A DNA stretch of 64,000 nt from Candidatus Binataceae bacterium. Its GTDB lineage: Bacteria > Desulfobacterota > Binatia > Binatales > Binataceae. The DNA is taken from assembly GCA_041491005.1 (NCBI GenBank), contig JBGPUE010000005.1:1165-65164 (forward strand), written 5' to 3'. The translations under genes were made by a program, and so were the position numbers. How positions within the stretch are numbered: the first letter of the stretch is position 1; each line of letters starts with the position of its first letter. The notes below the pieces were generated by a model. The model made no database searches. It was given only the letters and a program-made list of their open reading frames with translations, and was not told the DNA's origin. Positions 4,088-39,789 of the stretch are shown piece after piece.

Positions 4088-5290
4088 ATGAGCCTGGCGC
4101 GCCGAGTCGCATTGATGTTCGCCGCCTTGCTGGCCTTCAACGCGATGGTCGCGAGCTTCAACTTCCTGGTGAATCCATACGGCGCATGGCGCGTGCGGCT
4201 GATCAGCGACCTCTACCGCAGCGTCCATCAGGAACGCGTCGAGACGCCGTACATGATCCGCATGGCAGCGCCCAGCACATTGCTGCTGGGCAGCTCGCGG
4301 ATGCTGGACGGGATACCGATCGAGCAGGGCTGCCGCGACGGGATCGAGAACGCGGGGCTGTCGGGAGCGACGCTGGAGGAAATCGGCAAGCTGGCGGCGA
4401 TCGGGCTTCGCAACCCGCGCTTGCGGCGAATCATCTGGAGCCTCGATTTCTACGCCTTCACGGAGGATTTCAGCCGCTGCGATCCGGCGACCTGCGCCCG
4501 CCTCGAAGGCGACTTCTGGGCGCTGGTATCCGACACGTTGCTTAGCGCGGAAACCTTCGATCGCAGTCGCCGGGAGCTGGGACGCGCGATCGCAGGACGG
4601 AGCCGGCTGCTGCCACAACAGATCGCTTCAGTGCCATGGCCGCCTGAAATGGTGAAACTTGGGTTCGAGAAGCGCGCGGAAAGAGGGCTGGCATCGGCAT
4701 CGTCCGCCGACGTCAAATACCAGCTCATGCATAACCTGCCGGACTACACGCGATTCCATTTGGACCACGGCCAGATGAAGCTCTTTCGCCACATCGTAGA
4801 CGACGTCCGGGCGCATGGCGTCGAACTCGTGATCTTCATCCCGCCGCTGAGCGAGTACGAACTCGAGCTGATCCGGCAGAGCGGAGGCTGGGCGGCTTTT
4901 CAGGATTGGAAGCGCGAGCTGGCATCGATCAGCCCGTACTGGGACTTCTCCGGCTACAATGAAGTGGCGCGCACGGACCGGATGTTCGAGCATCTGAAGC
5001 ACTTCAAGCCGGCAGTTGGATACACGATCCTGCGACGGCTGTCAGGTTTGGGCTGCGAGGGATGTGGTCCCGACGCGCGCGTCGTCGATGAGGCGGCGAT
5101 GCGTGTCGACGAATCGACCATCGAGGAGGCGTTGAAAGCGCAGCAGCAGATGATGGTCGCGGCTACGCGCGTGCCGTCGCGCTATTCCAGCCTGGTCGCC
5201 CAAGTGCTCGCGGAGCGTCGCGGCCCGGCAGGCCCGGCTTTGGCGCGCGATCAGCACCAAACGGTGAGGTTAACTACGAGCGGCCATTGA
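4088..5290 (+). CDS. Putative periplasmic partner of the MBOAT acyltransferase (DltD/AlgJ-like, N-terminal TM anchor)
   Basis: It lies immediately downstream of and co-oriented with the MBOAT gene. It has a single N-terminal hydrophobic segment (VALMFAALLAFNAMVASF) followed by a soluble domain. Family assignment is by gene context only. Confidence 0.4.
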   Translation: MSLARRVALMFAALLAFNAMVASFNFLVNPYGAWRVRLISDLYRSVHQERVETPYMIRMAAPSTLLLGSSRMLDGIPIEQGCRDGIENAGLSGATLEEIGKLAAIGLRNPRLRRIIWSLDFYAFTEDFSRCDPATCARLEGDFWALVSDTLLSAETFDRSRRELGRAIAGRSRLLPQQIASVPWPPEMVKLGFEKRAERGLASASSADVKYQLMHNLPDYTRFHLDHGQMKLFRHIVDDVRAHGVELVIFIPPLSEYELELIRQSGGWAAFQDWKRELASISPYWDFSGYNEVARTDRMFEHLKHFKPAVGYTILRRLSGLGCEGCGPDARVVDEAAMRVDESTIEEALKAQQQMMVAATRVPSRYSSLVAQVLAERRGPAGPALARDQHQTVRLTTSGH

Positions 5291-6460
5291 TGGATTGCGC
5301 GGCAGCAGAATTGCGGCGAACCCCGCGAGCCCTGCGCCCATCGAGAAGGCGACGACCGGCCCGGCATGCTGATAGACCACGCCGAAAATCACGCTCGCGG
5401 GCAAGGCGGCCATGCCGACAGCGGCATGGTATGCGCCCAATGCTCGTCCCCGCCATGATTCATCGACCAAGTCGACCACCAGCGCCGTCTCGGCGCCTTC
5501 AGTGAGCCCGAAGAATATTCCATAAGCGGCGAACAGCGCCCACATCTGCCACGGCGCGTTCGCCAGGGCAAAGCCCAGGTATGCGAGCGCGTAGATCGCC
5601 CATCCGGCGAGAATCGGCGCGCGCCGCCCCGCGCGATCGCTCAGCGCGCCACCCCACGTCGAGCTGGACGCCTTCACCACATGCAGGACGATCCAGAGCA
5701 ATGGCGCGTATACCGCCGCGATTCCGATCTCGTTCGCCCGCCACAGCAAAAACGTGTCCGAGGAGCATCCCAGCGTGAACACGAAGACCGAAAGCAGGTA
5801 GCGCCGGAAAATCGGGGACGGCGGTAGTCTGATCGACGGCGGGGGCCCGGCGTCGATCTTCACAGGCCCTGGCGCTCGCCGCACTGATACTGCGAGGATC
5901 AACACGGCGATCAATCCCGGCAGCGCCGTCCATGCGAACACCTCGCGCAGGCCGAGTCCGCCCGCGAGCATCAGATAGGCTGCCAACGGCCCCGCGATCG
6001 CGCCGGCATTGTCGAGTGCGCGATGAAAACCGTAAGCGCGGCCTCGAATTTCAGCTGGGGCCGACGCCGCCAGCAGCGCATCGCGGGGCGGGGTGCGCAA
6101 TCCCTTGCCGACTCGATCGATGAAACGGATCCCGAGCACTTGCGGCCACACACTCACCGCCGACAGCAGTGGCCGGATCAGGCTCGGAATCGCGTACCCG
6201 AACAGCGTCAACCCCTTGAGACGCCCGATCCGATCCGCCATATAGCCCGAGGCGAGCTGCGACAGGCTTGCAGTCGCATCCGCAACCCCCTCGATCGCGC
6301 CGAGCGCCTGCGGACCGCCGCCGAGCATCGCGACGAATCGCGGCAGCAGCGGAATCACCATGTCGCTGGAGGTGTCGTTGAAGAAGGAGACGATACCAAG
6401 CGCGACGACCGTCGCGGGAAGCTGCGGGCGTTTCGCCGCCGCCGCGGCGGATGACTTCAC
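5270..6460 (-). CDS. MFS transporter
   Basis: Hydropathy shows about 12 TM segments with the typical MFS loop motifs (GRLKGLTLFGYAIPSL, DRAGRRAPILAGWAIYAL). Confidence 0.6.
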   Translation of the reverse strand: MKSSAAAAAKRPQLPATVVALGIVSFFNDTSSDMVIPLLPRFVAMLGGGPQALGAIEGVADATASLSQLASGYMADRIGRLKGLTLFGYAIPSLIRPLLSAVSVWPQVLGIRFIDRVGKGLRTPPRDALLAASAPAEIRGRAYGFHRALDNAGAIAGPLAAYLMLAGGLGLREVFAWTALPGLIAVLILAVSVRRAPGPVKIDAGPPPSIRLPPSPIFRRYLLSVFVFTLGCSSDTFLLWRANEIGIAAVYAPLLWIVLHVVKASSSTWGGALSDRAGRRAPILAGWAIYALAYLGFALANAPWQMWALFAAYGIFFGLTEGAETALVVDLVDESWRGRALGAYHAAVGMAALPASVIFGVVYQHAGPVVAFSMGAGLAGFAAILLPRNPSMAARS

Positions 6461-6957
6461 TTGCCCAAGCGGCGTAATTGACGCGGCGTCAGCATCCAGC
6501 TCAGTGTCGCCCCGCCGCGCGGCGAGATCGACGAGAGCTCCAGCGCGATGCAGCCGCCCTTTTTAAGCGTGATGACGGGTGCGTCGGCCGAGCCCGTCAT
6601 CAGCAGCGCCGCTATGTGGCTCAGTCCGGGCTCGTGTCCCACGATCATTACCGAGGCATGGCGCGCATAGGGCGCCAGCGCAGCCACAGACTGGGCCGGC
6701 GAGACTCCGGTAGCGAGCGCCTCGAGCTCTTTCGGCTTTGGCCCGCCGGGAAAGGCCGCGGCGACGATCTCGGCCGTCTCGGCCGCCCGCACCAGCGGGC
6801 TGGTGAGCAGCGATTCGTACTCGACGCCGGCCGCACGTAGTCCGCGCGCAGCCTGGATCATCTTTTGCCGCCCCCCTTCGGTCAGCCGCCGCGCGCCGTC
6901 GTCGCCGTCAGATGCATCGTTCTCGGCCACCGCATGTCGGAGGATATAGAGGATCAT
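6457..6957 (-). CDS. sixA: Phosphohistidine phosphatase SixA-like (histidine phosphatase superfamily)
   Basis: The internal start MILYILRHAVAENDAS carries the RH(A/G) catalytic motif; SPLVRAAETAEIV and GHEPGLSHI match the SixA pattern. The 4-bp ATGA overlap with the upstream CHAD gene supports this start over the longer ORF. Confidence 0.7.
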   Translation of the reverse strand: MILYILRHAVAENDASDGDDGARRLTEGGRQKMIQAARGLRAAGVEYESLLTSPLVRAAETAEIVAAAFPGGPKPKELEALATGVSPAQSVAALAPYARHASVMIVGHEPGLSHIAALLMTGSADAPVITLKKGGCIALELSSISPRGGATLSWMLTPRQLRRLGK

Positions 6958-7928
6958 GAAGCGCTCGCCCTGATAAGCGTCAGCTTTCGCGCCGGCGCGC
7001 TTTGCCCGTGCCTGGTAATGTCGGCCAGCAGCTTGTGCTGAATCGATTTGCAGTCCAGAGCCTTCCACGCTGCTGGTAGGCGGCCGCGCATCTTGCGCAT
7101 CCGTTTTTCCAGGGAATGGATGAGCGCGCCTGCCGCGAGCAGGGTCGTAGCGGGTGTGTTCGAGGTCTCCGCAAAGGTGCGCAGCCACACCACGGTCATC
7201 ACCGCGTCCTGATGATTGCCGAGCACAAGCTGTAACTTGGTCAACCGGTCGAGCGCCCTGCCGACCGTCTTACCGCTGTAGCCCTGCAGGATTTCCAACG
7301 CATAGCGCAACCGTTTGGTGCGCACGCGCAATCTGTGGAGGGCCTGAGCCGGCGAGTCGCGATCGATTTTGCGGCCCGCCCGCAATACCGATCGGAGCAA
7401 CGGTGCGATCAGTTCGGGAGCGACCAGACCCAATGTGGACTCGCGCCCGGCGGCGCCGAAGGCGCCGTCCAACCGACTGACCAGCGCGCGCTGGCGGGGG
7501 GAGCCTGACAGCTCGGCAAGCGCCGCGAGCGCGGCGGCGCGCCGTTCACGAATCGCATGCTCGATCGGACGCAGCGCCGCCTTCATGTGCGGATCCAGCC
7601 GCGGCGCGCGATTGGCGATCACGCCCGCAATCACGTCGAGGTCGCGAACCGCGCCGATCGCCCGTCCCAGCCATGCGAGCTCATGGCGGAGGGCGTCATA
7701 AGCGGCCGGCGGCATCAGCGACGAGAACAGCCGCAGGGCGGCTCGCATCCGCCGCGTCGCCACGCGCATTTCGTGCAGCGGCTCGGTCTCGCCGCCAAAT
7801 GCGTTCTGCTGTTCGCGCCTCAAGGCCTGCAGATGAAAGCCAATCACGGCGCGGGCCGCTGCTGCGAGATTGTCGTTTGGCGGCAGCGCCAGCGTGCGAG
7901 GACGGACGACCCGAGCCAGCGCGCTCAC
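6954..7928 (-). CDS. CHAD-domain protein (polyphosphate-granule-associated conserved histidine alpha-helical domain)
   Basis: It carries the HEMRVATRRMRAALRLF signature and further helical repeats with HRLRVRTKRLRYALE, both typical of CHAD. It overlaps both neighbouring genes by 4 bp. Confidence 0.75.
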   Translation of the reverse strand: MSALARVVRPRTLALPPNDNLAAAARAVIGFHLQALRREQQNAFGGETEPLHEMRVATRRMRAALRLFSSLMPPAAYDALRHELAWLGRAIGAVRDLDVIAGVIANRAPRLDPHMKAALRPIEHAIRERRAAALAALAELSGSPRQRALVSRLDGAFGAAGRESTLGLVAPELIAPLLRSVLRAGRKIDRDSPAQALHRLRVRTKRLRYALEILQGYSGKTVGRALDRLTKLQLVLGNHQDAVMTVVWLRTFAETSNTPATTLLAAGALIHSLEKRMRKMRGRLPAAWKALDCKSIQHKLLADITRHGQSAPARKLTLIRASAS

Positions 7929-8692
7929 TGACTATCCTTGCGCTCGGCAGGCGGCGCTTGTTCGCCGGAATCGGCTCCGGACAGATGAGCGACGCCCCTG
8001 AGATACGACCTGATCCGGGAGCGCAGATCCTTCTGAATCCGCGCAATCGGGCGGCGCGCGTCGACGACGACGAAACCGAACTCGTCCGCCAGCTGGTCGT
8101 ACTGCTCGATTAGCCGATGTTGATAGTTGAGGAACGAATCGAAGATGTCGGTGCCGAGCGCCAGATGCATCCCTGATTCCCAGTAGTCCATGCCCTTGCC
8201 GCCCAGCACCAGCGGCAGGAGATGTTCGACGTCGGTTTGCAGGTACAGAACGAGATCGGGGATCAGCGCCATCCCGAACAGGTCGCGGCTCCATTGCGGA
8301 TCGGCGCCCGCCACGCGATTGCGCGCAAACGCCGTATACATGTAGCGGTCGGCGAGCACGATGAATCCCGCGCGCAGCGCCGGAATGATCTCGTGTTCGA
8401 GGCGATCGGCAAAGTCGGCGGCGTATAGCAGGCTGGAGGTAGTGACGGTCAGCTCGTGGCCGGACTTGGCTTCGCTGATCGTCTCGGACAGCAACGGTGA
8501 CCGCGTCCATCCGGTGCTCGTCACCGCATGTCCTTCGAGTTCAAGCCACGGGCGCAGCAGGTCGATCTGCGTCGAGCGGCCGACGCCGTCGGTACCCTCC
8601 AAGACTATCAGATGGCCGGGCAGCGGCTTGTGATTCTCGAGGTAGGGCAGGCCATGGCCGTACCAGCTCTTGCCGGGCTTATCGTTTGCCAT
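7925..8692 (-). CDS. Thymidylate-kinase-like P-loop nucleotide kinase, paralogue 1
   Basis: It has a Walker A LIVLEGTDGVGRSTQ, a DRY motif (LADRYMYTAFA) and a lid-like region, i.e. the Tmk fold. It also has a ~25-aa N-terminal extension (HKPLPGH) not typical of canonical Tmk. Confidence 0.6.
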   Translation of the reverse strand: MANDKPGKSWYGHGLPYLENHKPLPGHLIVLEGTDGVGRSTQIDLLRPWLELEGHAVTSTGWTRSPLLSETISEAKSGHELTVTTSSLLYAADFADRLEHEIIPALRAGFIVLADRYMYTAFARNRVAGADPQWSRDLFGMALIPDLVLYLQTDVEHLLPLVLGGKGMDYWESGMHLALGTDIFDSFLNYQHRLIEQYDQLADEFGFVVVDARRPIARIQKDLRSRIRSYLRGVAHLSGADSGEQAPPAERKDSQ

Positions 8693-9509
8693 TGAGGTTC
8701 AACCAGGGTCCCGTCCTTTCAGCATGTTCCAGCATTCCCAACGTCATGCTGCGTACGAGCTTCTGTTGGGAAGGAATCGAACCGGTCGCATCGACTACGC
8801 GCAGATCGAACTCCTTGGTGATTTCATCGTAGATTCGCAGCACCCGGCCCTGGAAGAGGCGGAAACTCTCCGCCGGATCTGCCGCCAGCCCGAGATCCAT
8901 CCCCGCTTCGTGATACTTGAGATCGGTGCGGCCTGCGAGCAGGCGCTCCAGAGAGACGTCAATCGGCACGCGGAAGTAAAGCGTCAGATCGGGCCGCGGC
9001 GCGAAGCTGTAGACCGCGCGCACCCAATCGGGATGAACTCCGCGGGCGACATCGCGGCCAAAGGCGGTGAACACATAGCGGTCGGCCAGCACGATCATCC
9101 CGCCCTTGAGCGGCGGCAGAATCTGATAGGCGAGCCGGTCGGCGAAATCGACTGCATGCAGCAGGCTGAAGGTGGTCGGCGTCAGCAGGTCCTTGCGCTT
9201 GCCGCGCTTCATCGAGCGGCGCACCAGCCGCGATGAATTCCACTCCGTGAGATGGACCGGATAGCCGCGCGAGCGCAGCCATCGCTCGAGCAGTAGCAGT
9301 TGCGTGGACTTTCCCGACCCGTCGATGCCCTCGACCGCGATCAGCCGGCCGGGATACGGATGCGGATGGGTCAGCTGGCTGCGGCGCGCCGCGGCCGATG
9401 GCTGGCGGCGCTCGCCTTCACCCGCCCCGCCGCTGTCACTGACGGGCGCAGGATGATCTTGCGATCCAGCAATCGTGACAGTAGATCCGTCCTTCGTTCC
9501 GCTGCCCAT
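8679..9509 (-). CDS. Thymidylate-kinase-like P-loop nucleotide kinase, paralogue 2 (start uncertain; the ORF overlaps the ppx 3' end)
   Basis: It has a Walker A LIAVEGIDGSGKSTQ and DRY (LADRYVFTAFG). Its N-terminal extension HPHPYPGR parallels paralogue 1. The true start is probably an internal alternative start near 9360-9400. Confidence 0.6.
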   Translation of the reverse strand: MGSGTKDGSTVTIAGSQDHPAPVSDSGGAGEGERRQPSAAARRSQLTHPHPYPGRLIAVEGIDGSGKSTQLLLLERWLRSRGYPVHLTEWNSSRLVRRSMKRGKRKDLLTPTTFSLLHAVDFADRLAYQILPPLKGGMIVLADRYVFTAFGRDVARGVHPDWVRAVYSFAPRPDLTLYFRVPIDVSLERLLAGRTDLKYHEAGMDLGLAADPAESFRLFQGRVLRIYDEITKEFDLRVVDATGSIPSQQKLVRSMTLGMLEHAERTGPWLNLNGKR

Positions 9510-10960
9510 AGCTCGAGGTCGGCGCTCTCTTCCCCGCTATCCGCTTCCAGGATGAGCCGGCCGGGTGCGTAGCTGACTCCGAAATCCTTAACCACACTGA
9601 AGTGGCTGCGGTCTACCGCGTCGGCCACGCGCAGGATCGCGGCCAGTCCGCGCACCTGGCGGCGGCGGGGCGGCGTCAGCGACTGCATCTCGGGCGAAGA
9701 CAGCTTGGGCGCCTGCTTGCGATGGCCGCGCGCGGCCTGCGCGATGATTTCGATCTCGGCCGGATCGAAGCCGAGCAATTCGGCATTTTGAATCAGGTAG
9801 TAGCTGTGGTGATTGTGGCGGTCGTGGTCGACCGCATGGCCGACATCATGCAGCAGCGCCGCGTACTCCAGCAGCTCGCGCGACCGGGCGGGCAGGCCGA
9901 GCGCGGGCGCGGTTACATCGAACAGCTTCAGGGCGAGACGCGCGACTTGGCGGCCATGCTCGTTGGTTTCGCTGAAGCGGGCCGCCAGTGCTTCTACTGA
10001 ACGCCGCCGGACCTCGGCGGTGGTCTCGGCGCGCTCGCCGCTGATCTCGGCAAGGTTGAGCAGGACGCCTTCGCGCAGCGCCCAGGTGCATGCGACCAGT
10101 TCGGGCGCGCCCGCGCGGCTCATGATGAAATCGACCAGCACCGCTGCCGCCGGCATCAGGTCGATCCGCTTCGCATCTATTCCGGGGATATCGGCGCGCC
10201 CCGCCGCGTCCTCCGACAATAGTCGCTTGCGCAACCGCGCGATCTCGCTGGCGCTGGCGCTGGCGCCATGCAGCCGGTTCAGCTCCAGGCCCTGCGCTGC
10301 GCGCGCCATCACGATCAGCGCGTTGGCCGTGCCCGAGGTCCCGATCGCGCGTACGACTCCACAATGGCGCACGCGGTCGAGCAGCTCGCCAAGCTCGCGC
10401 TCCAGATGGCGTTCGAGCGCCGCGATATGGCTTGGGCGCGGCGGGTCGGACCTGAGAAATCGCTCGGTCAGGCGCACGACTCCGAGCGGCGCGCTGCGCA
10501 GCAACATCGGATGGCCGTCCTGCACCAGCACCAGTTCGGCGCTGCCGCCGCCGACATCGACCAGCAAATGCGGACCGCCGTCGAGGCCCATCGCATGCCG
10601 CGCCGCGCGCAGAATCAGGCGCGCTTCCTCGGCGCCCGACACGACCTGGACGGCGAGGCCGGTCTCACGCCGCAGCCGCTTGATGAAGATGTCGCGATTG
10701 CGCGCCTCGCGCACCGCGCTGGTAGCGACCGCGCGCACGCGATCGACCTGCCGCACCCGAGCCAGACGCACGAAGTTCTTGAGCGCGCGGACCGCGAGGT
10801 CCATCGCCTCAGGAGTGAGCTTGCCAGTGGTGAATGACCGGCTACCGAGCCGGACCATTTCTTTGACGCGGTCGACGACTTCGAGATGGCCCTCAGGGCT
10901 GACGTCGGCGATCACCATGTGAACCGAGTTCGAGCCGACGTCTATTGCGGCAAGGCGCAC
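9371..10960 (-). CDS. ppx: Exopolyphosphatase / guanosine pentaphosphate phosphohydrolase (Ppx/GppA) with C-terminal HD domain
   Basis: The N-terminus MRLAAIDVGSNSVHMVIADV is the actin-like ATPase fold signature, with DVGGGSAELV. The C-terminal HD motif is LLHDVGHAVDHDRHNHHSYYLI. Confidence 0.85.
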   Translation of the reverse strand: MRLAAIDVGSNSVHMVIADVSPEGHLEVVDRVKEMVRLGSRSFTTGKLTPEAMDLAVRALKNFVRLARVRQVDRVRAVATSAVREARNRDIFIKRLRRETGLAVQVVSGAEEARLILRAARHAMGLDGGPHLLVDVGGGSAELVLVQDGHPMLLRSAPLGVVRLTERFLRSDPPRPSHIAALERHLERELGELLDRVRHCGVVRAIGTSGTANALIVMARAAQGLELNRLHGASASASEIARLRKRLLSEDAAGRADIPGIDAKRIDLMPAAAVLVDFIMSRAGAPELVACTWALREGVLLNLAEISGERAETTAEVRRRSVEALAARFSETNEHGRQVARLALKLFDVTAPALGLPARSRELLEYAALLHDVGHAVDHDRHNHHSYYLIQNAELLGFDPAEIEIIAQAARGHRKQAPKLSSPEMQSLTPPRRRQVRGLAAILRVADAVDRSHFSVVKDFGVSYAPGRLILEADSGEESADLELWAAERRTDLLSRLLDRKIILRPSVTAAGRVKASAASHRPRRAAAS

Positions 10961-11048
10961 CAGCTGATCTTACGCTCCGGCCAAAGGCAAGTCATGCTTT
11001 CGGCTTTTGTGATTGCGTCGAGCAACGCGGCCTTAACAGCGCTGTTTA

Positions 11049-11588
11049 CTAGTCAGTCATCGATTCGAGTGCGCGCTGGAATACTTCGAGCGCTGATTCA
11101 TCGAATAGTACGATCTCGACTCGTTTGATTGAGGTTGGGCCGCTCAAGTGCGCGCGGATCTCGCCAAGCATCAGCGCCGCACAGCGATCCATCGGGAAGC
11201 CCGCGATGCCGGTGCCGATCGCGGGAAACGCGATCGACTCAAGGCCGCGCTCGGCGGCGCGGCGCATCGAGTTGCGGCTCGAATCGCGGATGCTGGCTTC
11301 GGTGGCCGCCGCGCCCAGATGCATCCCGGCGGCATGGATTACGAAGCGCACTTTCAGATCGCCCCCGCCGGTGGTTGCGGCCTCGCCGAGCGGGATGGAT
11401 CCGATCGTGTCACATTCGCGCTGAATCGCAGGTCCGCCCTTGCGCCGAATCGCCCCGGCGACACCGCCGCCGAGCTGCAGTTCGGTATTGGCCGCATTGA
11501 CGATCGCGTCAGCGCTGGTTTCCGTCAGATCGCCGCGCCTCAGTACCAGCCGCTCCCGCCACGATTGCTTGATCGGGTCGTTGGTCAT
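11049..11588 (-). CDS. Macro-domain protein (ADP-ribose / O-acetyl-ADP-ribose processing, YmdB-like)
   Basis: It carries ADAIVNAANTELQLGGGVAGAI and FVIHAAGMHLG plus AFPAIGTGIAGFP, the canonical macro-domain motifs. Confidence 0.8.
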   Translation of the reverse strand: MTNDPIKQSWRERLVLRRGDLTETSADAIVNAANTELQLGGGVAGAIRRKGGPAIQRECDTIGSIPLGEAATTGGGDLKVRFVIHAAGMHLGAAATEASIRDSSRNSMRRAAERGLESIAFPAIGTGIAGFPMDRCAALMLGEIRAHLSGPTSIKRVEIVLFDESALEVFQRALESMTD

Positions 11589-11642
11589 TTTTCACTCCTG
11601 TGCAATATGCGCCGCGTTCATCTGCTAAAATCCCGCCGCGGT

Positions 11643-13256
11643 ATGAGCAGCGCGTCACGAGGCGGACGGAACCCGCCGCATGCCGTCGGATGGACACCGC
11701 GGCCGCGAATCATCGTCGCATCGCTGTGCTTCCTCGCTGTCGCTGCCGCGTGCACTCGCACGCCATCACTCGTCACGCCGCCGGGCTACCTGCGAGTGGA
11801 TATCGAGACCTCGCCGCTGTCATTTGATCCGCGTTTCGCCACCGATGCGATCTCCTCCCGTATCGATGAGCTCATCTTCGACTCGCTGGTCAAGTTGGAC
11901 GCCCGCGGCGCTTTCATCGGCGACCTCGCCGAGAGCATCGAGCGCCCCACGCCCACCCAACTGGTCTTCCATTTGCGGCGCGGCGCGCGCTTCAGCGATG
12001 GGCGCCAGCTGACGGCGCGCGACGTCAAGTATACCTACGACTCGGTGCTCGATGCGGTCACGATCTCGCCAAAGCGCGCGGGATTGGAGCCGCTGGCCGC
12101 GATCGATGCGCCCGACGACTATACCGTCCGCATGACAACGCGCGGGCCTTACGCGCCTGCGCTCGAGATGGCGATGCTCGGGATCGTGCCGGAGGGCACT
12201 CCGGCGCAAGCCGCGCCGAACAGCTACCCGGTCGGAACGGGATTCTTCCGGCTCGCGGGCTTTGTGCGCGATGAGGCGGCCGTCCTCGAGCGCAATCGTT
12301 TCAGGCCGGCGCCCGGCCCGGGCATCCCGGGAGTGATCTTCAGAATCGTGCCCGACCCGACGGTCCGCGCGCTCGAACTCGCCAAAGGAACCGCCGATTT
12401 CGCCGAGAACAACATCCAGCCGGATCTGCTCGGCTACCTGGGCCGCTGGCAGCATCTGCGCGTCGCACGAAACCCCGGCACCGCCTACCAATACCTCGCC
12501 TTCAATTTCAGAGATTCGCGCTTGCGCGATCGGCGCGTGCGCCAGGCAATCGCATTCGCAATCGACCGCGAGGCGATCGTAGCGGCGATGCTTCGCGGGA
12601 CGGCGCGAGTCGCAACCGGAATGCTGACGCCAGAGAACTGGGCATATGAGGGCGAGGTGCGCCGTTATCCCTACGATCCGGCGCAGGCGCGCCGGTTGCT
12701 GGAAGAGGCGGGCTTTGCCGATCCCGGCGGCGGCAAGCCGCGGATGGCGCTCACCTACAAGACCACGCCCGAGGGCCGCCGGCTGGGCGAGGTCTGCCAG
12801 GCGATGCTGGCGAAGGTCGGTATCAAGCTGGATGTTCGCAGCAATGAATGGGCGACTTTCTATGGCGATATCCAGCACGGCAACTTCGAGTTGACCTCGC
12901 TGGCGTGGGTCGGGATCAACGATCCCCATCACTACTATATGGTCTTCGATTCCACGATGACTCCGCCGCGCGGACTCAATCGCGGCGCATACTCGAACGC
13001 CGAGATGGATCGGCTGCTCGAAGCTGGCGAGGTTGCGCTTGAGAGCGGGCAGCGGCGGGCCATCTATGCTGCGGCGCAGAAACTCGCCGCCCAAGAGCTG
13101 CCGTACCTGTCGCTATGGTGGCAGGACAACGTCACGGTGATGAACCGCGACATCGCGGGCTTCGTCCCGTACCCCAACGGGAGTCTGCGCTCGTTGGCCA
13201 CGATCAGCTTCGATACGCGCGCGATCGCGGTCCGCCACCAACGTGTCCAACCCTGA
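11643..13256 (+). CDS. ABC transporter substrate-binding lipoprotein, family 5 (peptide/nickel, DppA/OppA-like)
   Basis: The internal start MSSASRGG... gives a signal peptide with lipobox LAVAAAC, and there is family-5 SBP-like sequence throughout. The upstream part of the long ORF overlaps the macro gene on the other strand and is rejected. Confidence 0.8.
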   Translation: MSSASRGGRNPPHAVGWTPRPRIIVASLCFLAVAAACTRTPSLVTPPGYLRVDIETSPLSFDPRFATDAISSRIDELIFDSLVKLDARGAFIGDLAESIERPTPTQLVFHLRRGARFSDGRQLTARDVKYTYDSVLDAVTISPKRAGLEPLAAIDAPDDYTVRMTTRGPYAPALEMAMLGIVPEGTPAQAAPNSYPVGTGFFRLAGFVRDEAAVLERNRFRPAPGPGIPGVIFRIVPDPTVRALELAKGTADFAENNIQPDLLGYLGRWQHLRVARNPGTAYQYLAFNFRDSRLRDRRVRQAIAFAIDREAIVAAMLRGTARVATGMLTPENWAYEGEVRRYPYDPAQARRLLEEAGFADPGGGKPRMALTYKTTPEGRRLGEVCQAMLAKVGIKLDVRSNEWATFYGDIQHGNFELTSLAWVGINDPHHYYMVFDSTMTPPRGLNRGAYSNAEMDRLLEAGEVALESGQRRAIYAAAQKLAAQELPYLSLWWQDNVTVMNRDIAGFVPYPNGSLRSLATISFDTRAIAVRHQRVQP

Positions 13257-24699: not shown

Positions 24700-26961
24700 C
24701 TACTTCTTGTTGTGGATCGCCTTCAGCAAGCGCGGCGGCGACATCGGCGTTTGCGTCATCCGCACTCCCACCGCGCGATAGATCGCGTTGGCCACCGCTG
24801 CCACTGGCGGAACGATCGACACTTCGCCGACGCCGCGGATGCCCAGCGGATGGCCCGGGTTGGCTACCTCGACGATCACGGTTTCGATCGGCGGCAGGTC
24901 CAGGCAGGTCGGCATCCGATAATCGAGGAAGCCGGCATTACGGAGCTGTCCCTTGGCGTCGTAGAAATATTCCTCGTTGAGCGCCCAGCCGATTCCCTGC
25001 ACCGTTCCGCCCTGCATCTGACCCTCGACGTACGACGGATGAACCGCTTTGCCGGCGTCCTGTGCGCACGTCACGCGCAGGATCTGCACCTTGCCGGTCT
25101 CCGGATCCACTTCGACATCGACGCAGGTGGTGGCGAAGGCCGGCCCGACGCCGCGCGCATTGACATTGGCGCGGCCGGTGATCGGGCCGCCAGTGCGGCC
25201 GAGCTTGCCCGCGATCTCCTTGAGGCTCAGCGGCGGGACGCCGTTGTTCTTCGAGCTCACCTTGCCGTCGTGGAACTCGATTTCGTCGAACTTGCGCTCC
25301 CACAGCCGCGCCGCGCGCTCCTTGAGCTGGCGCACGACGTCATTGGCGGCTTCGTAGACGGCAAGTCCGGTGGCGAAAGTAACGCGGCTGCCGCCCGTGA
25401 CGTCGGTATGGCCGATCGAATCGGTGTCGGCCACCAGCGGGCGCACGTCATTGAAATCCAGCCCCAGCACTTCGGCCGCGATCATCGCCATCGAGGCGCG
25501 TGAACCGCCGATGTCGGGTGAGCCAGTGACGACGCTGGCGGTGCCGTCCGCGTGAAGATGGACATCGGCTGACGATTGGAACCCGACGTTGAACCAGAAT
25601 CCGGTCGCGACGCCGCGCCCCCGATTGGGTCCGGTCAGCTTCGATTTGTAATGCGGGCTGTTCTTGATCGCCTCGCAGGTCTCGATCATGCCGATGCGCT
25701 TGTAGGGGCCCATCGGACCGGGCACGCCTTCGCGAGCGCCATTGCGGATACGGAAATCGAGCGGATCGATTCCGCATTTCTCAGCCAGCTCATCGATCAC
25801 GGTTTCGGCTGCGAACGCGGCATTGGTGGCGCCCGGCGCGCGATAAGCGGCGGTCTTCGGCCGGTTGACGACCACGTCGAACGCATCGATTTGCGCGTGC
25901 TCGATATTGTACGGCGCGAGGATCGTCAACATGCCAGCGCCGACCGGCGAACCCGGAAACGCGCCTGCCTCGTATGCCATCCAGACTTTGGCGCCCGTGA
26001 TGGTGCCGTCCTTGGTGCAACCCATCTTCACACGAATCGTCGAGCCCGAAGTCGGGCCGGTGGCGCGCAGGACCTCGCCGCGCGTCATCACCATCTTCAC
26101 CGGATGACCGGTCTCCTTGGCCAGCATCACGGCCACCGGTTCGAGGTAGATCGTGGTCTTGCCGCCGAAGCCGCCGCCGATCTCGGCCGGCACGACGCGG
26201 ATCTTGCCGGCTTCCATGCCCAGCACCTGCGCGCTCAGCGCGCGAACTTCGAATGGTCCCTGCGTCGAGCAATAGATGGTCGCGTGGCCATCGGCGGTGT
26301 AAGTCGCGACCGCGTTGTGCGGCTCGATGTATCCCTGATGGACCATCGCGGTGCGGAATTCGCGCTCGACCACGAAGTCGGCGGACTTGAAGGCGGCTTC
26401 AACGTCGCCGCGCTTAATCGGGATATGGCTGGCTATGTTGGTCGGCTTGTCGGGCGCATCCTTGCTGCGCAGCTCGGGCAGCAGGATCGGAGCATTGGGC
26501 GCCATCGCGTCCTCGACCGTCATCGCAGGCGGCAGCACTTCGTATTCAACCTCGATCAGCCCAAGGGCCTCCTCGGCGATATGCGGGTTGGTCGCGGCGA
26601 CGGCGGCGATCGCATGTCCGTCGTACAGCACTTTGCCCCGCGCCAGGATGTTGAGCGACAGGTAATGCGGGTTCATCGGTTGCTCGCCCATCGCGATAGT
26701 CTCGTTCTTCAGGTTGGGCAGATGCTCGCCGGTGACGACCGCCTTGACGCCCGGCAGCTTGCGCGCTTTCTCGATGTTGATCGATTTGATCCGCGCATGC
26801 GCATGCGGGCTGCGCAGCACCTTGCCGAAGAGCATCCCGGGGAACGAATAGTCGGCGCCGTAGCGGGCGCGCCCGATTACTTTGTCGATCCCGTCAGGCC
26901 GGATCGGCCGCGTGCCAATGACCCTAAACTGCTTAGCGCCTTCTTTGGGTGAAGCTGCCAT
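24700..26961 (-). CDS. Xanthine dehydrogenase-family molybdopterin-binding large subunit (CoxL-like)
   Basis: It is 753 aa. The N-terminus FRVIGTRPIRPDGIDKVIGRARYGADY, the AAYRAPGATN region and overall length fit the aldehyde oxidase/XDH large subunit. Confidence 0.85.
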   Translation of the reverse strand: MAASPKEGAKQFRVIGTRPIRPDGIDKVIGRARYGADYSFPGMLFGKVLRSPHAHARIKSINIEKARKLPGVKAVVTGEHLPNLKNETIAMGEQPMNPHYLSLNILARGKVLYDGHAIAAVAATNPHIAEEALGLIEVEYEVLPPAMTVEDAMAPNAPILLPELRSKDAPDKPTNIASHIPIKRGDVEAAFKSADFVVEREFRTAMVHQGYIEPHNAVATYTADGHATIYCSTQGPFEVRALSAQVLGMEAGKIRVVPAEIGGGFGGKTTIYLEPVAVMLAKETGHPVKMVMTRGEVLRATGPTSGSTIRVKMGCTKDGTITGAKVWMAYEAGAFPGSPVGAGMLTILAPYNIEHAQIDAFDVVVNRPKTAAYRAPGATNAAFAAETVIDELAEKCGIDPLDFRIRNGAREGVPGPMGPYKRIGMIETCEAIKNSPHYKSKLTGPNRGRGVATGFWFNVGFQSSADVHLHADGTASVVTGSPDIGGSRASMAMIAAEVLGLDFNDVRPLVADTDSIGHTDVTGGSRVTFATGLAVYEAANDVVRQLKERAARLWERKFDEIEFHDGKVSSKNNGVPPLSLKEIAGKLGRTGGPITGRANVNARGVGPAFATTCVDVEVDPETGKVQILRVTCAQDAGKAVHPSYVEGQMQGGTVQGIGWALNEEYFYDAKGQLRNAGFLDYRMPTCLDLPPIETVIVEVANPGHPLGIRGVGEVSIVPPVAAVANAIYRAVGVRMTQTPMSPPRLLKAIHNKK

Positions 26962-27025
26962 TGAGATGACCTCTCTTGATGCCGGTCCGGTATTGCTGAA
27001 GCTTGTTCCGGGTTGAAGGCGCGGC

Positions 27026-27499
27026 CTAGCGCATCTCTTTGGCCGCGTCCATCACCGCCCGCACTATCTTATCGTATCCGGTGCATCGGCACAGGTTGCC
27101 AGCCAGGGCGTAACGCACATCGGCCTCGCTGGGGTTGCGATTGCGATCGAGCAGCGCCTTGGCGGCGATCAGGAATCCCGGCGTGCAGATTCCGCATTGC
27201 AGGCTCGCATGCTCGAGGAACTTCTGCTGCAGCGGATGCAGCGTCGTACCCGTGGCGAGGCCCTCGACGGTCGTGATCTGCTTGCCCTGCGCCTCGGGAC
27301 CGAGCATCAAGCACGAGCAGGCTACGCGTCCGTCGACGATCACGCTGCATGCGCCGCAGTCGCCGGTAAGGCAGCCCTCTTTGCTGCCGGTCAGCCCGAG
27401 CACGTCGCGCAGCACTTCGAGCAGGCTCTGGCGCGGTTCGCAGATGAACTCGGTCGGTTCGCCATTGATGGTGGTTTCTACGATTTTGCGTGTCGACAT
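27026..27499 (-). CDS. (2Fe-2S)-binding small subunit (CoxS-like)
   Basis: Two Cys clusters are present: GCLTGDCGACSV and CGICTPGFL...CRCTGY. Confidence 0.85.
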   Translation of the reverse strand: MSTRKIVETTINGEPTEFICEPRQSLLEVLRDVLGLTGSKEGCLTGDCGACSVIVDGRVACSCLMLGPEAQGKQITTVEGLATGTTLHPLQQKFLEHASLQCGICTPGFLIAAKALLDRNRNPSEADVRYALAGNLCRCTGYDKIVRAVMDAAKEMR

Positions 27500-27524
27500 T
27501 ATCTGGTGTTTCCCGTTGTGCGGT

Positions 27525-28409
27525 TCAGGCCTTGCGCGCGCGCTCGGCCGCGATCTTGAGCGTGCGGCGCGTCAGCACCGCGGTGATCTCGCTGCGATAC
27601 TCGGCAGTCCCGCGCATGTCGTCGATCGGCGAGGCAGCAGCGGCTGCGAGCTTGCCCGCGGCTTCGATCGCGGCGTCGTCGAGCTTCTTTCCCACCAGCG
27701 ACTGAGCCGCCTTGGTGGCGACAATCGGTGTCGGACCGACCGCGCCCAGCGCGATGCGAGCTGCCGTGCATTTGTCCCCGTCTAGCGTGATTGCCGCGCC
27801 GACGCCGACCACCGCTATATCCATCTCGTTGCGCGGGATGAATCGGAGATAGGCGTCGCTCGAATGCGCTGGCGGAGCGGGAATGCGCAACTCGACCAGC
27901 AATTCGCCCGGCTCCAGTACCGTGCGGCCCGGCGAGAGCACGAACTTCTCGACCGGCACGTCGCGTTCGCCCTTGGCGCCAACGATGTGCGCGACGGCGC
28001 CGAGCGCAATCAGCGCAGGCGTGGTATCGGCAGCGGGCGAGCCATTGCACAAATTCCCGCCGACCGACGCGCGGCTCTGGATCTGGACCGATCCGATCAG
28101 ATGAGCCGCCTCAGCCAATCCCGGATAGTGCTGATGCACCGCCTGGTTCTCGTAGATCTCGATGCAGGGGACGGCTGCGCCGAGCTTGAGCCCGCTCTTG
28201 GCATCGAAGCTGATTCGCCGCAGTTCCGCGATCGCCTTGACGTCAACCAGCTGCTCGGGTTTGCGGACTCCCGCCCGCATCTGGATCAGGATGTCGGTGC
28301 CGCCGCATAACACGCGGGCCTTGTCGCCCTTGGCCGCGAGCAGCTTGACCGCCTGATCAACCGTACTTGGAGCTTCATAAGTAATCGCGTGCAATGGAAC
28401 ACCCTCCAC
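27525..28409 (-). CDS. FAD-binding medium subunit (CoxM-like, molybdopterin dehydrogenase FAD-binding)
   Basis: It carries LCGGTDILIQMRAG and VGGNLCNGSPAAD, which are characteristic. The gene order M-S-L matches CO-dehydrogenase-type operons. Confidence 0.8.
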   Translation of the reverse strand: MEGVPLHAITYEAPSTVDQAVKLLAAKGDKARVLCGGTDILIQMRAGVRKPEQLVDVKAIAELRRISFDAKSGLKLGAAVPCIEIYENQAVHQHYPGLAEAAHLIGSVQIQSRASVGGNLCNGSPAADTTPALIALGAVAHIVGAKGERDVPVEKFVLSPGRTVLEPGELLVELRIPAPPAHSSDAYLRFIPRNEMDIAVVGVGAAITLDGDKCTAARIALGAVGPTPIVATKAAQSLVGKKLDDAAIEAAGKLAAAAASPIDDMRGTAEYRSEITAVLTRRTLKIAAERARKA

Positions 28410-33611: not shown

Positions 33612-34373
33612 ATGCCCTTCACTGCCAGATATGGGGCCGCCAAAGCCCTGTTGTGCGCCATCGGTCTGCTCGCATTTGCGGGCTGCTCGAACAGCGCGAA
33701 CAGCAGTGACGACGTGGCGCGTGCGAGCGTCAGCGGTGGGGGAGTCGAGCAATGCGCGGGCATGATGTCGGCCGCAATGACGGTCGAAGAGGATGAATCG
33801 AATTATCGGATCAAACCCGGCGACGACTTGGCGGTCAATTTTTATCTGAACACCGAGTTCAACGATGAGGTGACGGTGCGTCCGGACGGCAAGATCAGCT
33901 TGCGCCTGGTTGGCGAGATCAACGCCCGCGATTTGACGCCGGCGCAGCTCGCGGCAAACATCGACAAGGCCTACGCCGACGAACTTCGCGATCCTGGCGC
34001 GACCGTTCACGTCAAGGGCAGCCCGAGCCGGCGGATCTATGTGCACGGCGAAGTGGTAAAGCCGGGCGCTCTTCCGCTTCAACCCCGGATGACCGCCGTG
34101 CAGGCAGTGGCGGAGTCGGGCGGATTGACGCCTGATGCCGGCGCCGATCGCGCCATCCTGATGCGCCGTGACGCCTGTGGCCAGCCTTACGGGATCCCGT
34201 TCAATCTCGACCACGCCGCACACGAGGGCAGTTCCCACGATGACTTGGTGCTGCTGCCCGGTGACGTGATCGTGGTGCCGCGTTCGAAGGTCGCCGACAT
34301 CGGGTTATTCGTGAAGCACTACTTCAAGGACCTGCTCCCGGTTAACCCCTACATACCGCTGGTGCCTTTCTAG
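33612..34373 (+). CDS. Outer-membrane polysaccharide export lipoprotein (Wza/GumB/EpsE-like; PES domain plus SLBB)
   Basis: It has the lipobox LAFAGC and the YRIKPGDDLAVNFYLNTEFNDEVTVRPDGKISLRLVGEINARDLTPAQL signature of the Poly_export domain. Confidence 0.8.
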   Translation: MPFTARYGAAKALLCAIGLLAFAGCSNSANSSDDVARASVSGGGVEQCAGMMSAAMTVEEDESNYRIKPGDDLAVNFYLNTEFNDEVTVRPDGKISLRLVGEINARDLTPAQLAANIDKAYADELRDPGATVHVKGSPSRRIYVHGEVVKPGALPLQPRMTAVQAVAESGGLTPDAGADRAILMRRDACGQPYGIPFNLDHAAHEGSSHDDLVLLPGDVIVVPRSKVADIGLFVKHYFKDLLPVNPYIPLVPF

Positions 34374-34393
34374 GGCGAGGAAGGGAGCAGCAG

Positions 34394-35908
34394 ATGACGG
34401 TCCAGCAAATATTCGAATCCTGGCTTGAACTGGCCTTCAGGCGGCGCACCACTGTTTCGCGCGTCGCGGTGGCGGTGTTCGGCACGGTGTTCGTGCTGAC
34501 GATGCTGTGGCCGCCGCTGTACCAGTCCAGCAGCAAAATCATGATCCAGATCAATCGCGCCAACCTGTTGGTTTCACCCGGACTGGAGACCGGTGCGGCC
34601 AATCCAGCCAACGTGATTGCCGCTCCGGTCGACGAGCAGGACTTGAACTCCGAAATCGAACTGCTCACCAGCCGTCAGCTCGTCGAGCACGCCCTGGAGG
34701 GCCTGACCGACAGCAAACATCAGAGCTTCATGGGCCGCATGGTTTCGATGATCAAGAGCGTGATCGACCTGCCGGGATCGGTGTACGGCGTGCTGCACAG
34801 CTCGCCGGAGATGACGCCGCGCCAGCAATGGGCCAGCGAGCTGGCTGCACGGTTATCGTCCTCGGTGATCAAGCGTTCGAATGTCATCGAAGTGGACTTC
34901 CGCGCGCACGATCCGCAGTGGGCCGAAACCTTCCTGCGGCGGCTGCTCGATCAGTACATGGAGTTCCACGCGCGGATCTCGCAAGACCCGCAGACCGAGA
35001 GGTTCTTCCAGCAACAGTCAGAGATTTTGCAGGAAAGGCTGCGCCGCTCCGAAGAGAAGCTCAAAGCACTCGAGCTGCAGACCGGCATCACTTCGCTGGC
35101 CGAGCAGAAGCAGGCGCTGGTCACGCAGCTGTCTTCCTTCGAAGCCGAATACCGCAGGAACAAGGCGCTGCTGGCGGCCACCCAGCAGCAGGTTGTCTCG
35201 CTGGGTGTCGAACTGGGCAAGAGCCCTGAGAAGAGCACGCGCGAGTCCAAGGTCGTCCAGAACAACGCTCTGCAACAGCTCAAGCCCCAAGTGATGGCGA
35301 TGGAGGCGGAGCGCGCCGAGCTGCTCAGCCGCTACACGCCGACCAGCGCGCGCATTCGTGAAATCGACGCCAAGCTGGACGCCGCCCGCAAGATCCTCCA
35401 CCGCGAGAATCAGAGCGAGGTTCAAGAGACCAACATCGGCGTCAACCCGATATGGGAACAACTCAGCGGCAAGCTTGCAGAGGCGCGCGTCGCGGTCGCC
35501 TCGATCGGTTCCAACCAGGAAGCGCTTCAACAGCAGATTGAGGAGTATCGCGAACAGCTCAAGGCGCTCGCCACCGATGGCATCGAAGTCGAGCGGCTGC
35601 AGCGCCAGGTCGAAACCGACAAGGAAGCCTACCTGTCATACACCCGCAAGGGCGAAGAAGCGCGCGCGGCCCAGGCCCTGAACCAAAGCAAGATTCTTAA
35701 CGTCACCATCGTCGAAGCGCCGACCCAGCCGTTGCATCCGGTTTCGCCGCGTCTGGAAGTCAACCTTGCGGCGGGGCTCGTATTCGCGATCGCACTGGCG
35801 CTCGGCATCGCATGGTGGGAAGAACGCCGCGACCCGCGCATTTACTCGGAGGCCACCATCGCGGAAGTAACCGGGCTCAAAACCATCGCCGCTCTGCCGC
35901 AATCCTGA
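34394..35908 (+). CDS. Polysaccharide chain-length determinant protein (PCP-2/GumC/ExoP N-terminal type, no kinase domain)
   Basis: It has an N-terminal TM, a long periplasmic coiled-coil region and a C-terminal TM (LAAGLVFAIALALGIAWW), the typical Wzz/Wzc N-domain layout. Confidence 0.75.
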   Translation: MTVQQIFESWLELAFRRRTTVSRVAVAVFGTVFVLTMLWPPLYQSSSKIMIQINRANLLVSPGLETGAANPANVIAAPVDEQDLNSEIELLTSRQLVEHALEGLTDSKHQSFMGRMVSMIKSVIDLPGSVYGVLHSSPEMTPRQQWASELAARLSSSVIKRSNVIEVDFRAHDPQWAETFLRRLLDQYMEFHARISQDPQTERFFQQQSEILQERLRRSEEKLKALELQTGITSLAEQKQALVTQLSSFEAEYRRNKALLAATQQQVVSLGVELGKSPEKSTRESKVVQNNALQQLKPQVMAMEAERAELLSRYTPTSARIREIDAKLDAARKILHRENQSEVQETNIGVNPIWEQLSGKLAEARVAVASIGSNQEALQQQIEEYREQLKALATDGIEVERLQRQVETDKEAYLSYTRKGEEARAAQALNQSKILNVTIVEAPTQPLHPVSPRLEVNLAAGLVFAIALALGIAWWEERRDPRIYSEATIAEVTGLKTIAALPQS

Positions 35909-35923
35909 TGGTGCTGAAAAAAG

Positions 35924-37393: not shown

Positions 37394-37398
37394 AAGCA

Positions 37399-38169: not shown

Positions 38170-38171
38170 TA

Positions 38172-39272: not shown

Positions 39273-39273
39273 G

Positions 39274-39789
39274 ATGGCCAAGCGCGAGCTTCCGCCCAAC
39301 GTCTGCGTCGCCGACGACGTCCGGCTCGGCGAGCGAGTCCGGCTGGCCGCGTTCGTAAATCTATACGGATGCGAAATCGGCGACGATTCGCGCGTCGGCG
39401 CATTCGTCGAGGTACAGCGCGGCGCGCGCATTGGCAGCCGCTGCAAGATTTCGAGCCATACCTTCATCTGCTCGGGCGTCGAAATCGAGGACGAAGTTTT
39501 CATTGGTCACGGCGTGGTCTTCATTAACGATCGCCGCCCGCGCGCTACCCGTCCCGACGGTGCGGCGCAGACCGAGAGCGATTGGGCGATGGAGCGCACC
39601 ATGGTGCGCCGGCGCGCGTCGATCGGCTCGGGCGCGATCGTCATGTGCGGCGTTGAAATCGGTGAAGGAGCGCTCGTCGGCGCGGGTGCGCTCGTCACGC
39701 GCGACGTGCCGCCCTACAGCGTGGTGGTCGGCTCGCCGGCCCGCGTCCGCGAACGACTCAAACTAACCACTAGTCAGGAGCTTCAATGA
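39274..39789 (+). CDS. Hexapeptide-repeat (left-handed beta-helix) N-acetyltransferase (WbpD/WlbB-like)
   Basis: Tandem [LIV]-G-x-x-x-x hexapeptides are present throughout (IGDDSRVGAFVEVQRGARIGSRCKISSHTFI...). Its size of 171 aa fits. Confidence 0.8.
   Translation: MAKRELPPNVCVADDVRLGERVRLAAFVNLYGCEIGDDSRVGAFVEVQRGARIGSRCKISSHTFICSGVEIEDEVFIGHGVVFINDRRPRATRPDGAAQTESDWAMERTMVRRRASIGSGAIVMCGVEIGEGALVGAGALVTRDVPPYSVVVGSPARVRERLKLTTSQELQ

Follow-up and report, generated by a model that had tools for sequence, protein, structure and literature searches.

A probable PPK3-type polyphosphate kinase operon in a Candidatus Binataceae bacterium

Introduction

Polyphosphate (polyP) kinases govern how cells store phosphate, survive stress and buffer energy. 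A contig of a Candidatus Binataceae bacterium (GenBank assembly GCA_041491005.1, contig JBGPUE010000005.1, positions 1,165 to 65,164) raises the question of why two tandem genes for proteins of the thymidylate (dTMP) kinase fold, here called TmkA and TmkB, should lie packed between ppx, which encodes a Ppx/GppA-type protein, and genes for CHAD and SixA proteins. The whole 64,000-nucleotide stretch is referred to below as the window. A first-pass annotation of its letters had suggested that the pair are polyP-linked kinases and had treated their pairing with CHAD as undescribed. The suggestion is borne out by orthology to the polyP kinase PPK3, seen both in the match to ST1543 and in subunit-specific profiles, while the pairing turns out to have been published already, in an operon of Sulfolobus acidocaldarius and in predicted bacterial operons (PMC12995831). 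We consider it likely that the locus represents a PPK3 polyphosphate operon of the bacterial, Binatia type, in which TmkA is cPPK3 and TmkB is rPPK3, and that the two would form a hetero-oligomer with reversible ATP:polyP activity. As such it is a clear further example of a recently described system and not a new kind of pathway.

SaPPK3 is the heteromeric polyphosphate kinase of S. acidocaldarius (Hofmann et al., bioRxiv 2024; J Biol Chem 2026; PMC12995831). It is encoded by saci_2017–2021, a single operon of sixA, ppx, two "dTMPK" genes (cPPK3 and rPPK3) and CHAD. Saci_2019 (cPPK3) makes polyP from ATP and much prefers to make ATP from ADP and polyP; Saci_2020 (rPPK3) is inactive alone and activates cPPK3 in an α2β2 complex. 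Neither protein has dTMP kinase activity, and the enzyme uses ATP/ADP, with GTP not serving as phosphoryl donor and with reduced activity on GDP (PMC12995831). PPK3 has been characterised in this one archaeon only, and we find it encoded with the same partner genes in many uncultured bacteria. For the window, our assignment is built on homology and orthology, motif patterns and conserved synteny, while activity, stoichiometry and reaction direction are carried over from the Sulfolobus enzyme.

Results and discussion

TmkA and TmkB match PPK3 subunits better than dTMP kinases

When all PDB sequences were searched, TmkA matched S. tokodaii ST1543 (2plr/5h70), a homologue of the SaPPK3 catalytic subunit Saci_2019 (PMC12995831), at 199 bits and 48% identity, compared with at most 56 bits for canonical dTMP kinases. 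TmkB matched ST1543 at 138 bits, and for the two proteins the margin over any canonical dTMP kinase (TMK) is 80–140 bits. Both fall under the cutoff of 83.25 of the dTMP kinase equivalog model TIGR00041 (TmkA 70.9, TmkB 76.1), and neither matches a PPK2 family in Pfam or NCBIfam at E ≤ 0.01. An AlphaFold2 model of TmkB (pLDDT 80) has the dTMP kinase fold with a poorly predicted lid; its best PDB match is again ST1543 (target-normalised TM-score 0.90, root-mean-square deviation 2.1 Å), with canonical TMKs next at target-normalised TM-scores of 0.74–0.87. TmkA and TmkB are 44% identical to each other.

To separate the two subunits we used hidden Markov models (HMMs) for c and r that were built without the window and without Sulfolobales sequences. 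These models assign the Sulfolobales c and r proteins correctly, and they place TmkA with c and TmkB with r (Table 1). In a neighbour-joining tree rooted with two partial canonical TMKs, all 84 of 84 c sequences, TmkA and the Sulfolobales c proteins among them, form one clade, and c and r together exclude the outgroup. A physical complex of the two subunits is supported by the existence of natural single-chain fusions in the same order, c then r (P0002, P0003, P0004 and P0175 in our protein library).

Table 1. Scores in bits of the window proteins and reference sequences against the two subunit models
Sequence	c-HMM	r-HMM
TmkA	380	235
TmkB	243	369
Sulfolobales c	266–270	206–214
Sulfolobales r	100–107	150–160
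Two canonical TMK fragments	57–70	60–68

It might be argued that the two are simply dTMP kinases of the ordinary kind, one from the housekeeping tmk and the other from its duplicate, whose genes came by chance to lie between ppx and CHAD, for both proteins exceed the Pfam Thymidylate_kin gathering score and their homologues are publicly annotated "dTMP kinase". However, besides the scores under the TIGR00041 cutoff and the far stronger match to ST1543, the substrate site itself has changed. In HMMER alignments the LLF..R motif of the Aquifex aeolicus and Thermus thermophilus TMKs has LLH..F as its counterpart in c and LLY..F in r, and TmkA and TmkB are without the AYQG motif of canonical TMKs. 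We take the Phe and Arg of LLF..R to be the thymine-stacking and base-binding residues; opposite them in the alignments stand His118/Phe122 of c and Tyr90/Phe94 of r. On these alignments the dTMP-binding residues of the dTMP kinases are replaced in both window proteins, which agrees with the published analysis, and the orthologues Saci_2019 and Saci_2020 lack dTMP kinase activity (PMC12995831). The pair and its polyP gene context are, moreover, conserved across phyla, as described below. The first-pass annotation had named a canonical tmk in unconserved surroundings as the outcome that would undo its proposal, and we find the opposite. Judged by their sequences, TmkA and TmkB are not housekeeping dTMP kinases, and we regard that explanation as highly improbable.

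A Walker A lysine or arginine separates the subunits

The PPK3 assignment also predicts which of the two proteins would carry out the chemistry. Signatures were drawn from 84 c and 83 r sequences. That of c, conserved across the 84, comprises Walker A GxGK[ST], TEWNSS, His118, DRY, a basic cluster and lid residues R194 and K198, and TmkA has all of it: GSGKST with K67, D143-R144-Y145, the basic residues R97, K101, R102, K104, R105 and K106, and both lid residues. The Walker A lysine is present in 84 of 84 c sequences, and positions 97, 101, 105, 194 and 198 are basic in at least 85% of the c but in fewer than 25% of the r sequences. The r signature includes TGW[TR]RS and Tyr90 and lacks the basic cluster and the lid Arg/Lys of c. 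In r the Walker A lysine is replaced by arginine (82 of 83 sequences and all 119 close relatives), and TmkB accordingly reads GVGRST. DRY is kept in 79 of the 83 (LADRYMYT in TmkB); DGY is found in the three Sulfolobales r sequences alone, whose Walker A motif is GSGR in two and GSGK in one. The first-pass annotation had credited both paralogues with an intact P-loop and DRY. The glycine-rich loop and DRY do stand in both, but TmkB has lost the Walker A lysine together with the basic residues of lid and cleft, and the picture of two intact kinases does not hold.

The inactivity of rPPK3 has been explained by loss of the arginine of the DRX motif (PMC12995831). As judged from the present alignments, that criterion seems specific to Sulfolobales and suits neither the window nor the other 79 loci, and what the window and its relatives add to the published account is a bacterial r that, unlike Sulfolobales r, keeps DRY and carries the lysine-to-arginine change. 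On its HMM scores TmkB is orthologous to rPPK3 despite the retained DRY, and its residues indicate that it is probably non-catalytic. As a simple and testable marker, the Walker A Lys/Arg dichotomy tells catalytic from regulatory subunits better than the DRX criterion does. TmkB could nonetheless retain some catalytic or nucleotide-dependent function, because its DRY is kept and the published loss of DRX does not apply.

Taken further, this point leads to the alternative that, unlike the catalytic-plus-inert pair of Sulfolobus, both paralogues are active kinases that differ in substrate or role (c, say, as a polyP:ADP kinase and r as a second nucleotide kinase or polyP-end kinase), or that r is a nucleotide-sensing allosteric subunit. 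The bacterial and Nitrososphaerales r proteins keep Asp-Arg-Tyr where Sulfolobales r has DGY; r is about as conserved as c (71% mean column identity), with many invariant residues, among them R39, R64, K76, R97, R116 and R124; and the Walker A arginine is essentially invariant and not drifting, which suggests selection for function. The two subunits are also closer here, at 44% identity, than the archaeal pairs, reported at 22–38%. Weighed against this, two features that are invariant in c, the lid Arg/Lys and the basic KxGKKK cluster, are missing from r, and the lid region of the r model is of low confidence. In P-loop NTPases a Walker A lysine-to-arginine change usually keeps nucleotide binding and severely cuts phosphoryl transfer. 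Saci_2020, finally, is inactive alone (PMC12995831). We consider an active or sensing r unlikely, and retain the PPK3 assignment with TmkA as the catalytic and TmkB as the regulatory subunit.

The pair and its polyP partners are conserved across bacterial phyla

We compared the window with the 80 best-matching loci from species-level genomes and with three Sulfolobales-type metagenome loci (L081–L083), in all of which open reading frames (ORFs) were assigned by phmmer. The 561 genome hits behind this set are not a count of PPK3, because the pattern EGIDGSGK also occurs in canonical TMKs and only the 80 retrieved loci were verified. The best match to the window among species-level genomes is 74% identical. 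In 79 of the 80 loci the c and r genes stand side by side, the exception being at a contig end. Near the pair, ppx, sixA and CHAD are often found; they occur within 10 kb of it in 59, 40–41 and 28–38 of the 80 loci, respectively. For 47 loci the sequence extends 5 kb or more to both sides; in these, ppx lies within 5 kb of c in 38, sixA in 28 and CHAD in 23, and 18 have all of them. This is the neighbourhood conservation that the first-pass annotation had asked to see.

The 80 loci come from at least 10 bacterial phyla and a few Nitrososphaerales; the bacterial groups include Binatia, Acidobacteriota, Nitrospirota, Planctomycetota, Chloroflexota, Bacteroidota, Ignavibacteriota, Verrucomicrobiota, Armatimonadota and Dormibacterota. 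In protein databases, all 8000 of 8000 scored candidates (90%-identity clusters) match at E ≤ 1e-10, and a 50%-identity library holds 310 clusters at E ≤ 1e-30; the closest named matches are from Candidatus Binataceae and Binatia. PPK3 operons with PPX, SixA and CHAD had been predicted from genome neighbourhoods in Nitrososphaeraceae, Sulfolobaceae and "a few" bacteria from scattered taxa, Acidobacteriota being the sole bacterial phylum named in the main texts, and in the preprint only (PMC12995831). Going by these loci and clusters, and not by an exhaustive count of PPK3 genomes, the family seems to be much more common among bacteria than "a few" would suggest. In its carriers, which include Binatia and nitrite-oxidising Nitrospira, the enzyme is still annotated "dTMP kinase", and surveys of genomes in which PPK1 and PPK2 are the sole measure of polyP capacity will miss such organisms.

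PPK3-like domains also occur in large fusion proteins of the 50%-identity library (P0285, P0297, P0311, P0302, P0343, P0314 and P0253). Their architectures are MFS_1 + Tmk-like + DUF2252/APH (1030–1237 aa), SPX + Tmk-like + DUF2252, inorganic pyrophosphatase (InPase) + Tmk-like, ART-PolyVal + InPase + Tmk-like (2575 aa), and a c-r pair joined to Ppx domain III/HD. These fusions link a PPK3-like kinase to phosphate sensing and transport in other organisms.

Five overlapping genes form the core of the operon

Seven minus-strand ORFs span positions 5270–11588 (Table 2), and the conserved core consists of five: ppx, TmkA, TmkB, CHAD and sixA. ORF calls, Pfam and NCBIfam matches and direct reading of the sequence confirm the genes, the strand and the overlaps as they were first described. 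PPX, SixA and CHAD are all in an operon with the c-r pair, with stop/start overlaps throughout: 139 nt for ppx/TmkA (9371–9509), 14 nt for TmkA/TmkB (8679–8692), a GTGA for TmkB/CHAD (7925–7928) and an ATGA for CHAD/sixA (6954–6957). For sixA, the longest ORF, reaching up to 7188, was rejected in favour of the shorter gene. The SixA protein has an N-terminal LRHA, containing the RH catalytic motif, and GHEP further on.

Table 2. Features of the window discussed in the text
Feature	Position	Strand	Evidence
Collagen-like repeat array	600–1870	minus	54-nt (18-codon) tandem repeats
ORF	1318–1869	plus	no Pfam match
MFS transporter	5270–6460	minus	PF07690 115.5 bits
SixA-type histidine phosphatase	6457–6957	minus	ATG start; TIGR00249 86.6 bits (cutoff 74.5)
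CHAD, stand-alone (polyP-granule-associated family)	6954–7928	minus	GTG start; PF05235 168.6 bits (gathering cutoff 25.6; 227/228 profile positions covered)
TmkB (putative rPPK3)	7925–8692	minus	Thymidylate_kin (PF02223) 60 bits
TmkA (putative cPPK3)	8679–9509	minus	Thymidylate_kin (PF02223) 71 bits; 276 aa
ppx (Ppx/GppA + domain III/HD)	9371–10960	minus	GTG start; PF02541 207.8 bits, PF21447 108 bits, HD 40.7 bits
12-bp palindrome	approx. 11034–11045		perfect palindrome
macro	11049–11588	minus	PF01661 121 bits; ADP-ribose binding / O-acetyl-ADP-ribose deacetylase type
Molybdenum hydroxylase, three subunits	24700–28409	minus	Pfam, two subunits
Exopolysaccharide biosynthesis/export cluster	33612–53371	plus	Poly_export/SLBB, GNVR chain-length protein, AAA_22+LysM protein, GFO/IDH/MocA oxidoreductase, hexapeptide acetyltransferase
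Exopolysaccharide cluster, further members	33612–53371	plus	DegT aminotransferase, Bac_transf, Polysacc_synt_3 flippase, GT2, Wzy_C, beta-helix protein

The order ppx-c-r-CHAD-sixA and its overlaps are identical in four related Binatia contigs (L084–L087). Because the 14-nt c/r and 4-nt CHAD/sixA overlaps recur in all four, the coupling is conserved and not accidental. In two of these contigs, L085 and L086 (Candidatus Binatia GCA_035650655.1), the operon is divergent to pstSCAB; in L085 (1–12241), phoU lies beyond pstB, a PhoR/PhoB-like pair is nearby, and a Porin_5 gene follows the operon. This arrangement, divergent from pstSCAB-phoU and near a PhoB/PhoR-like pair, suggests that in this relative the operon belongs to the Pho regulon. 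In the window no pst genes adjoin the operon. A consensus scan of 5000–12000 returned no promoter-like sites and did not set the limits of the transcription unit, and terminator-like sites over the same interval showed no excess over shuffled sequence, with none in the gap between macro and ppx.

The start of the cPPK3 gene deserves comment, as the protein carries a 46-residue N-terminal extension that runs into ppx. In the window and in the two related loci L001 and L002 there is no ATG, GTG or TTG between the upstream ATG and the P-loop, and the ppx stop falls within the extension in all three; the context of the upstream ATG has the consensus M-x-x-R/T-E/K-K-D/N-G. For want of any such codon in these three loci, the long ppx/TmkA overlap appears, at the level of sequence, to be real. 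Close homologues as annotated are divided, about half having 46–65 residues ahead of the conserved Gly and the others about 16–18, and on the near-identical contig L084 the gene as called begins at an internal codon, which makes cPPK3 177 aa long. A short form starting at the ppx stop was considered and set aside: there is no ATG, GTG or TTG there, just a CTG at 9374 that forms CTGA with the ppx stop, and we kept the 276-aa form, which is unproven. A CTG start is conceivable because the window has CTGA where related Binatia have an ATGA stop/start overlap.

Two neighbours of the core are lineage-specific

The first-pass annotation had described a six-gene operon that included the macro gene. 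The five-gene core of that description stands, but macro lies upstream of ppx with an 88-bp gap and no overlap, and it is found near the c-r pair in just 2 of the 80 loci (L001 and L046). The one contig in which it adjoins ppx is L084, a near-identical metagenome contig; in L001 macro and ppx are parted by an ORF on the opposite strand, and in L046 macro is 6.6 kb away on the other strand. The protein scores under every NCBIfam equivalog cutoff. We therefore rejected macro as part of the system on these locus counts. In the gap, directly past the macro stop, is a perfect 12-bp palindrome, AACAGCGCTGTT, which could be an operator or a small hairpin.

At the other end, the first-pass annotation missed an MFS transporter gene that overlaps the sixA stop by a GTGA (6457–6460). 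Because of this overlap the gene is predicted to be co-translated, and probably co-transcribed, with the operon here. No homologue was found in any of the 80 related loci, iterated HMM searches included, and MFS was rejected as a conserved partner; it was likewise not found past sixA in L085 and L087, while L084 ends 20 bp past sixA and is uninformative on this point. Proteins that fuse an MFS domain to a PPK3-like domain and DUF2252 are present in the representative library. A relationship between the window MFS and the fused MFS domain was rejected (BLASTP E 0.23 and 1.8). Macro and MFS are lineage-specific neighbours.

With the neighbourhood in hand, a further alternative can be judged, namely that the locus is a stringent-response or nucleotide-signalling module, with GppA acting on pppGpp, the kinases acting on guanine or other nucleotides, and macro and SixA providing ADP-ribose and phosphohistidine links. 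Ppx/GppA proteins are bifunctional in some bacteria, the GppA model NF008260 does match Ppx at 191 bits, and the macro and sixA genes are close at hand in the window. However, that score is far under the GppA cutoff of 624, and the best NCBIfam model for Ppx is the exopolyphosphatase TIGR03706 (280.9 bits, cutoff 307). CHAD is a polyP-binding family, macro accompanies the pair in only the two loci named, and in the Binatia relatives the operon lies beside pstSCAB, with phoU beyond in L085. SaPPK3, moreover, uses ATP/ADP and not GTP as donor, with its activity on GDP reduced (PMC12995831). A signalling module is in our view scarcely credible.

The identification of the locus as a PPK3 operon is itself open to several objections, which we count against it. 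The Ppx score lies below the TIGR03706 cutoff, and Ppx/GppA proteins are able to act on pppGpp too. TmkB retains DRY, so the published reason for the inactivity of r, loss of the DRX arginine, fails here. In the tree rooted with two TMK fragments r is not monophyletic, the c clade nesting inside it, and the r assignment accordingly leans on the subunit-specific HMM scores and not on the tree. A genome with PPK3 is expected to encode a canonical dTMP kinase as well and usually to be without PPK1 and PPK2; within the 64-kb window, none of the ORFs scanned with Pfam is a PPK1, a PPK2 or a third Tmk. Lastly, activity, stoichiometry and direction are extrapolated from an enzyme of a thermoacidophilic archaeon whose c subunit is 48% identical.

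A proposed mechanism by analogy with SaPPK3

If the PPK3 identification is correct, TmkA and TmkB would assemble into a hetero-oligomer, as in the α2β2 complex of Sulfolobus, and this complex would catalyse ATP + polyP(n) <-> ADP + polyP(n+1), with a direction that by analogy would favour regeneration of ATP from polyP at low energy charge. The chemistry would fall to cPPK3, through Walker A Lys67, Asp143-Arg144 of DRY, the lid residues Arg194 and Lys198 and a basic polyP cleft. The rPPK3 subunit would be an activating or oligomerising partner; it may still bind nucleotide but, with arginine for the Walker A lysine and without the basic residues of lid and cleft, would be severely impaired in phosphoryl transfer. 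Ppx would trim polyP to inorganic phosphate, CHAD would bind the polymer or granule, and SixA would be a co-regulated histidine phosphatase. The stop/start overlaps would couple the five genes, and MFS in the window lineage, into one translational unit.

It is possible, though we think it doubtful, that the bacterial enzyme is a variant of the archaeal one in which r is not an inert scaffold but is nucleotide-sensing or partly active and sets the ATP/ADP switch point, and that PPK3, far from being rare, serves several phyla abundant in soil and fresh water (Binatia, Acidobacteriota, Nitrospirota, Planctomycetota and Chloroflexota) as their main polyP kinase. The first part of this proposal is raised by the kept DRY arginine and the invariant Walker A arginine.

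Comparison with known systems

The window operon resembles that of SaPPK3 in its five gene families and in the order ppx, c, r. Its c protein is, on the evidence above, an orthologue that keeps all the catalytic and basic residues, and its r protein is assigned as one by the subunit-specific HMM scores. In Sulfolobales loci L081–L083 the c and r ORFs overlap too, by 26 nt compared with 14 nt here. The differences are several. The sixA gene is at the 5′ end of the SaPPK3 operon and at the 3′ end in the window. Sulfolobales r has DGY with a Walker A Arg or Lys, whereas the window r has DRY with Arg. The window proteins carry the N-terminal motifs PHPYPG (c) and LPY...LPG (r), which the archaeal proteins both lack, and c has in addition the 46-residue extension into ppx, unlike SaPPK3. 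The window lineage adds the MFS and macro neighbours. Finally, the window host is a mesophilic soil-type bacterium and that of SaPPK3 a thermoacidophilic archaeon.

An analogy between PPK3 and the two-domain class II PPK2 has been drawn before (PMC12995831). The latter (for example, P. aeruginosa PA3455) likewise combines an inactive with an active P-loop kinase module and is likewise a polyP-dependent nucleotide kinase, but it belongs to a different P-loop kinase family, its modules are fused and not encoded by two genes, and it phosphorylates AMP rather than ADP. Canonical dTMP kinases (TIGR00041/PF02223) share the fold, P-loop, DRY and lid architecture; the window pair differs from them in its replaced dTMP residues, its sub-cutoff scores, its polyP operon and its orthologues without dTMP kinase activity. 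The ppk1-ppx operons of Proteobacteria also couple a polyP kinase gene to ppx, a likeness that extends to the Binatia operon of L085/L086, which adjoins pstSCAB, with phoU beyond in L085. PPK1, in contrast, is an unrelated kinase that has a phospholipase-D-like fold and works through a phospho-His intermediate. It has been proposed that PPK3 took the place of PPK1 in situ, or PPK1 that of PPK3 (PMC12995831).

Other features of the window

Three further regions of the window are listed in Table 2. Near its start is a long array of tandem repeats whose reverse-complement unit encodes Gly-X-Y triplets, which suggests a bacterial collagen-like repeat protein; the plus-strand ORF that lies within the array, with no Pfam match, is probably not the real frame. 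Further on is a molybdenum hydroxylase of the CO-dehydrogenase/xanthine-dehydrogenase type, for which Pfam matches the Mo-binding large subunit and the FAD subunit, with a 157-aa, unscanned ORF in between. The largest of the three is a cluster for exopolysaccharide biosynthesis and export on the plus strand.

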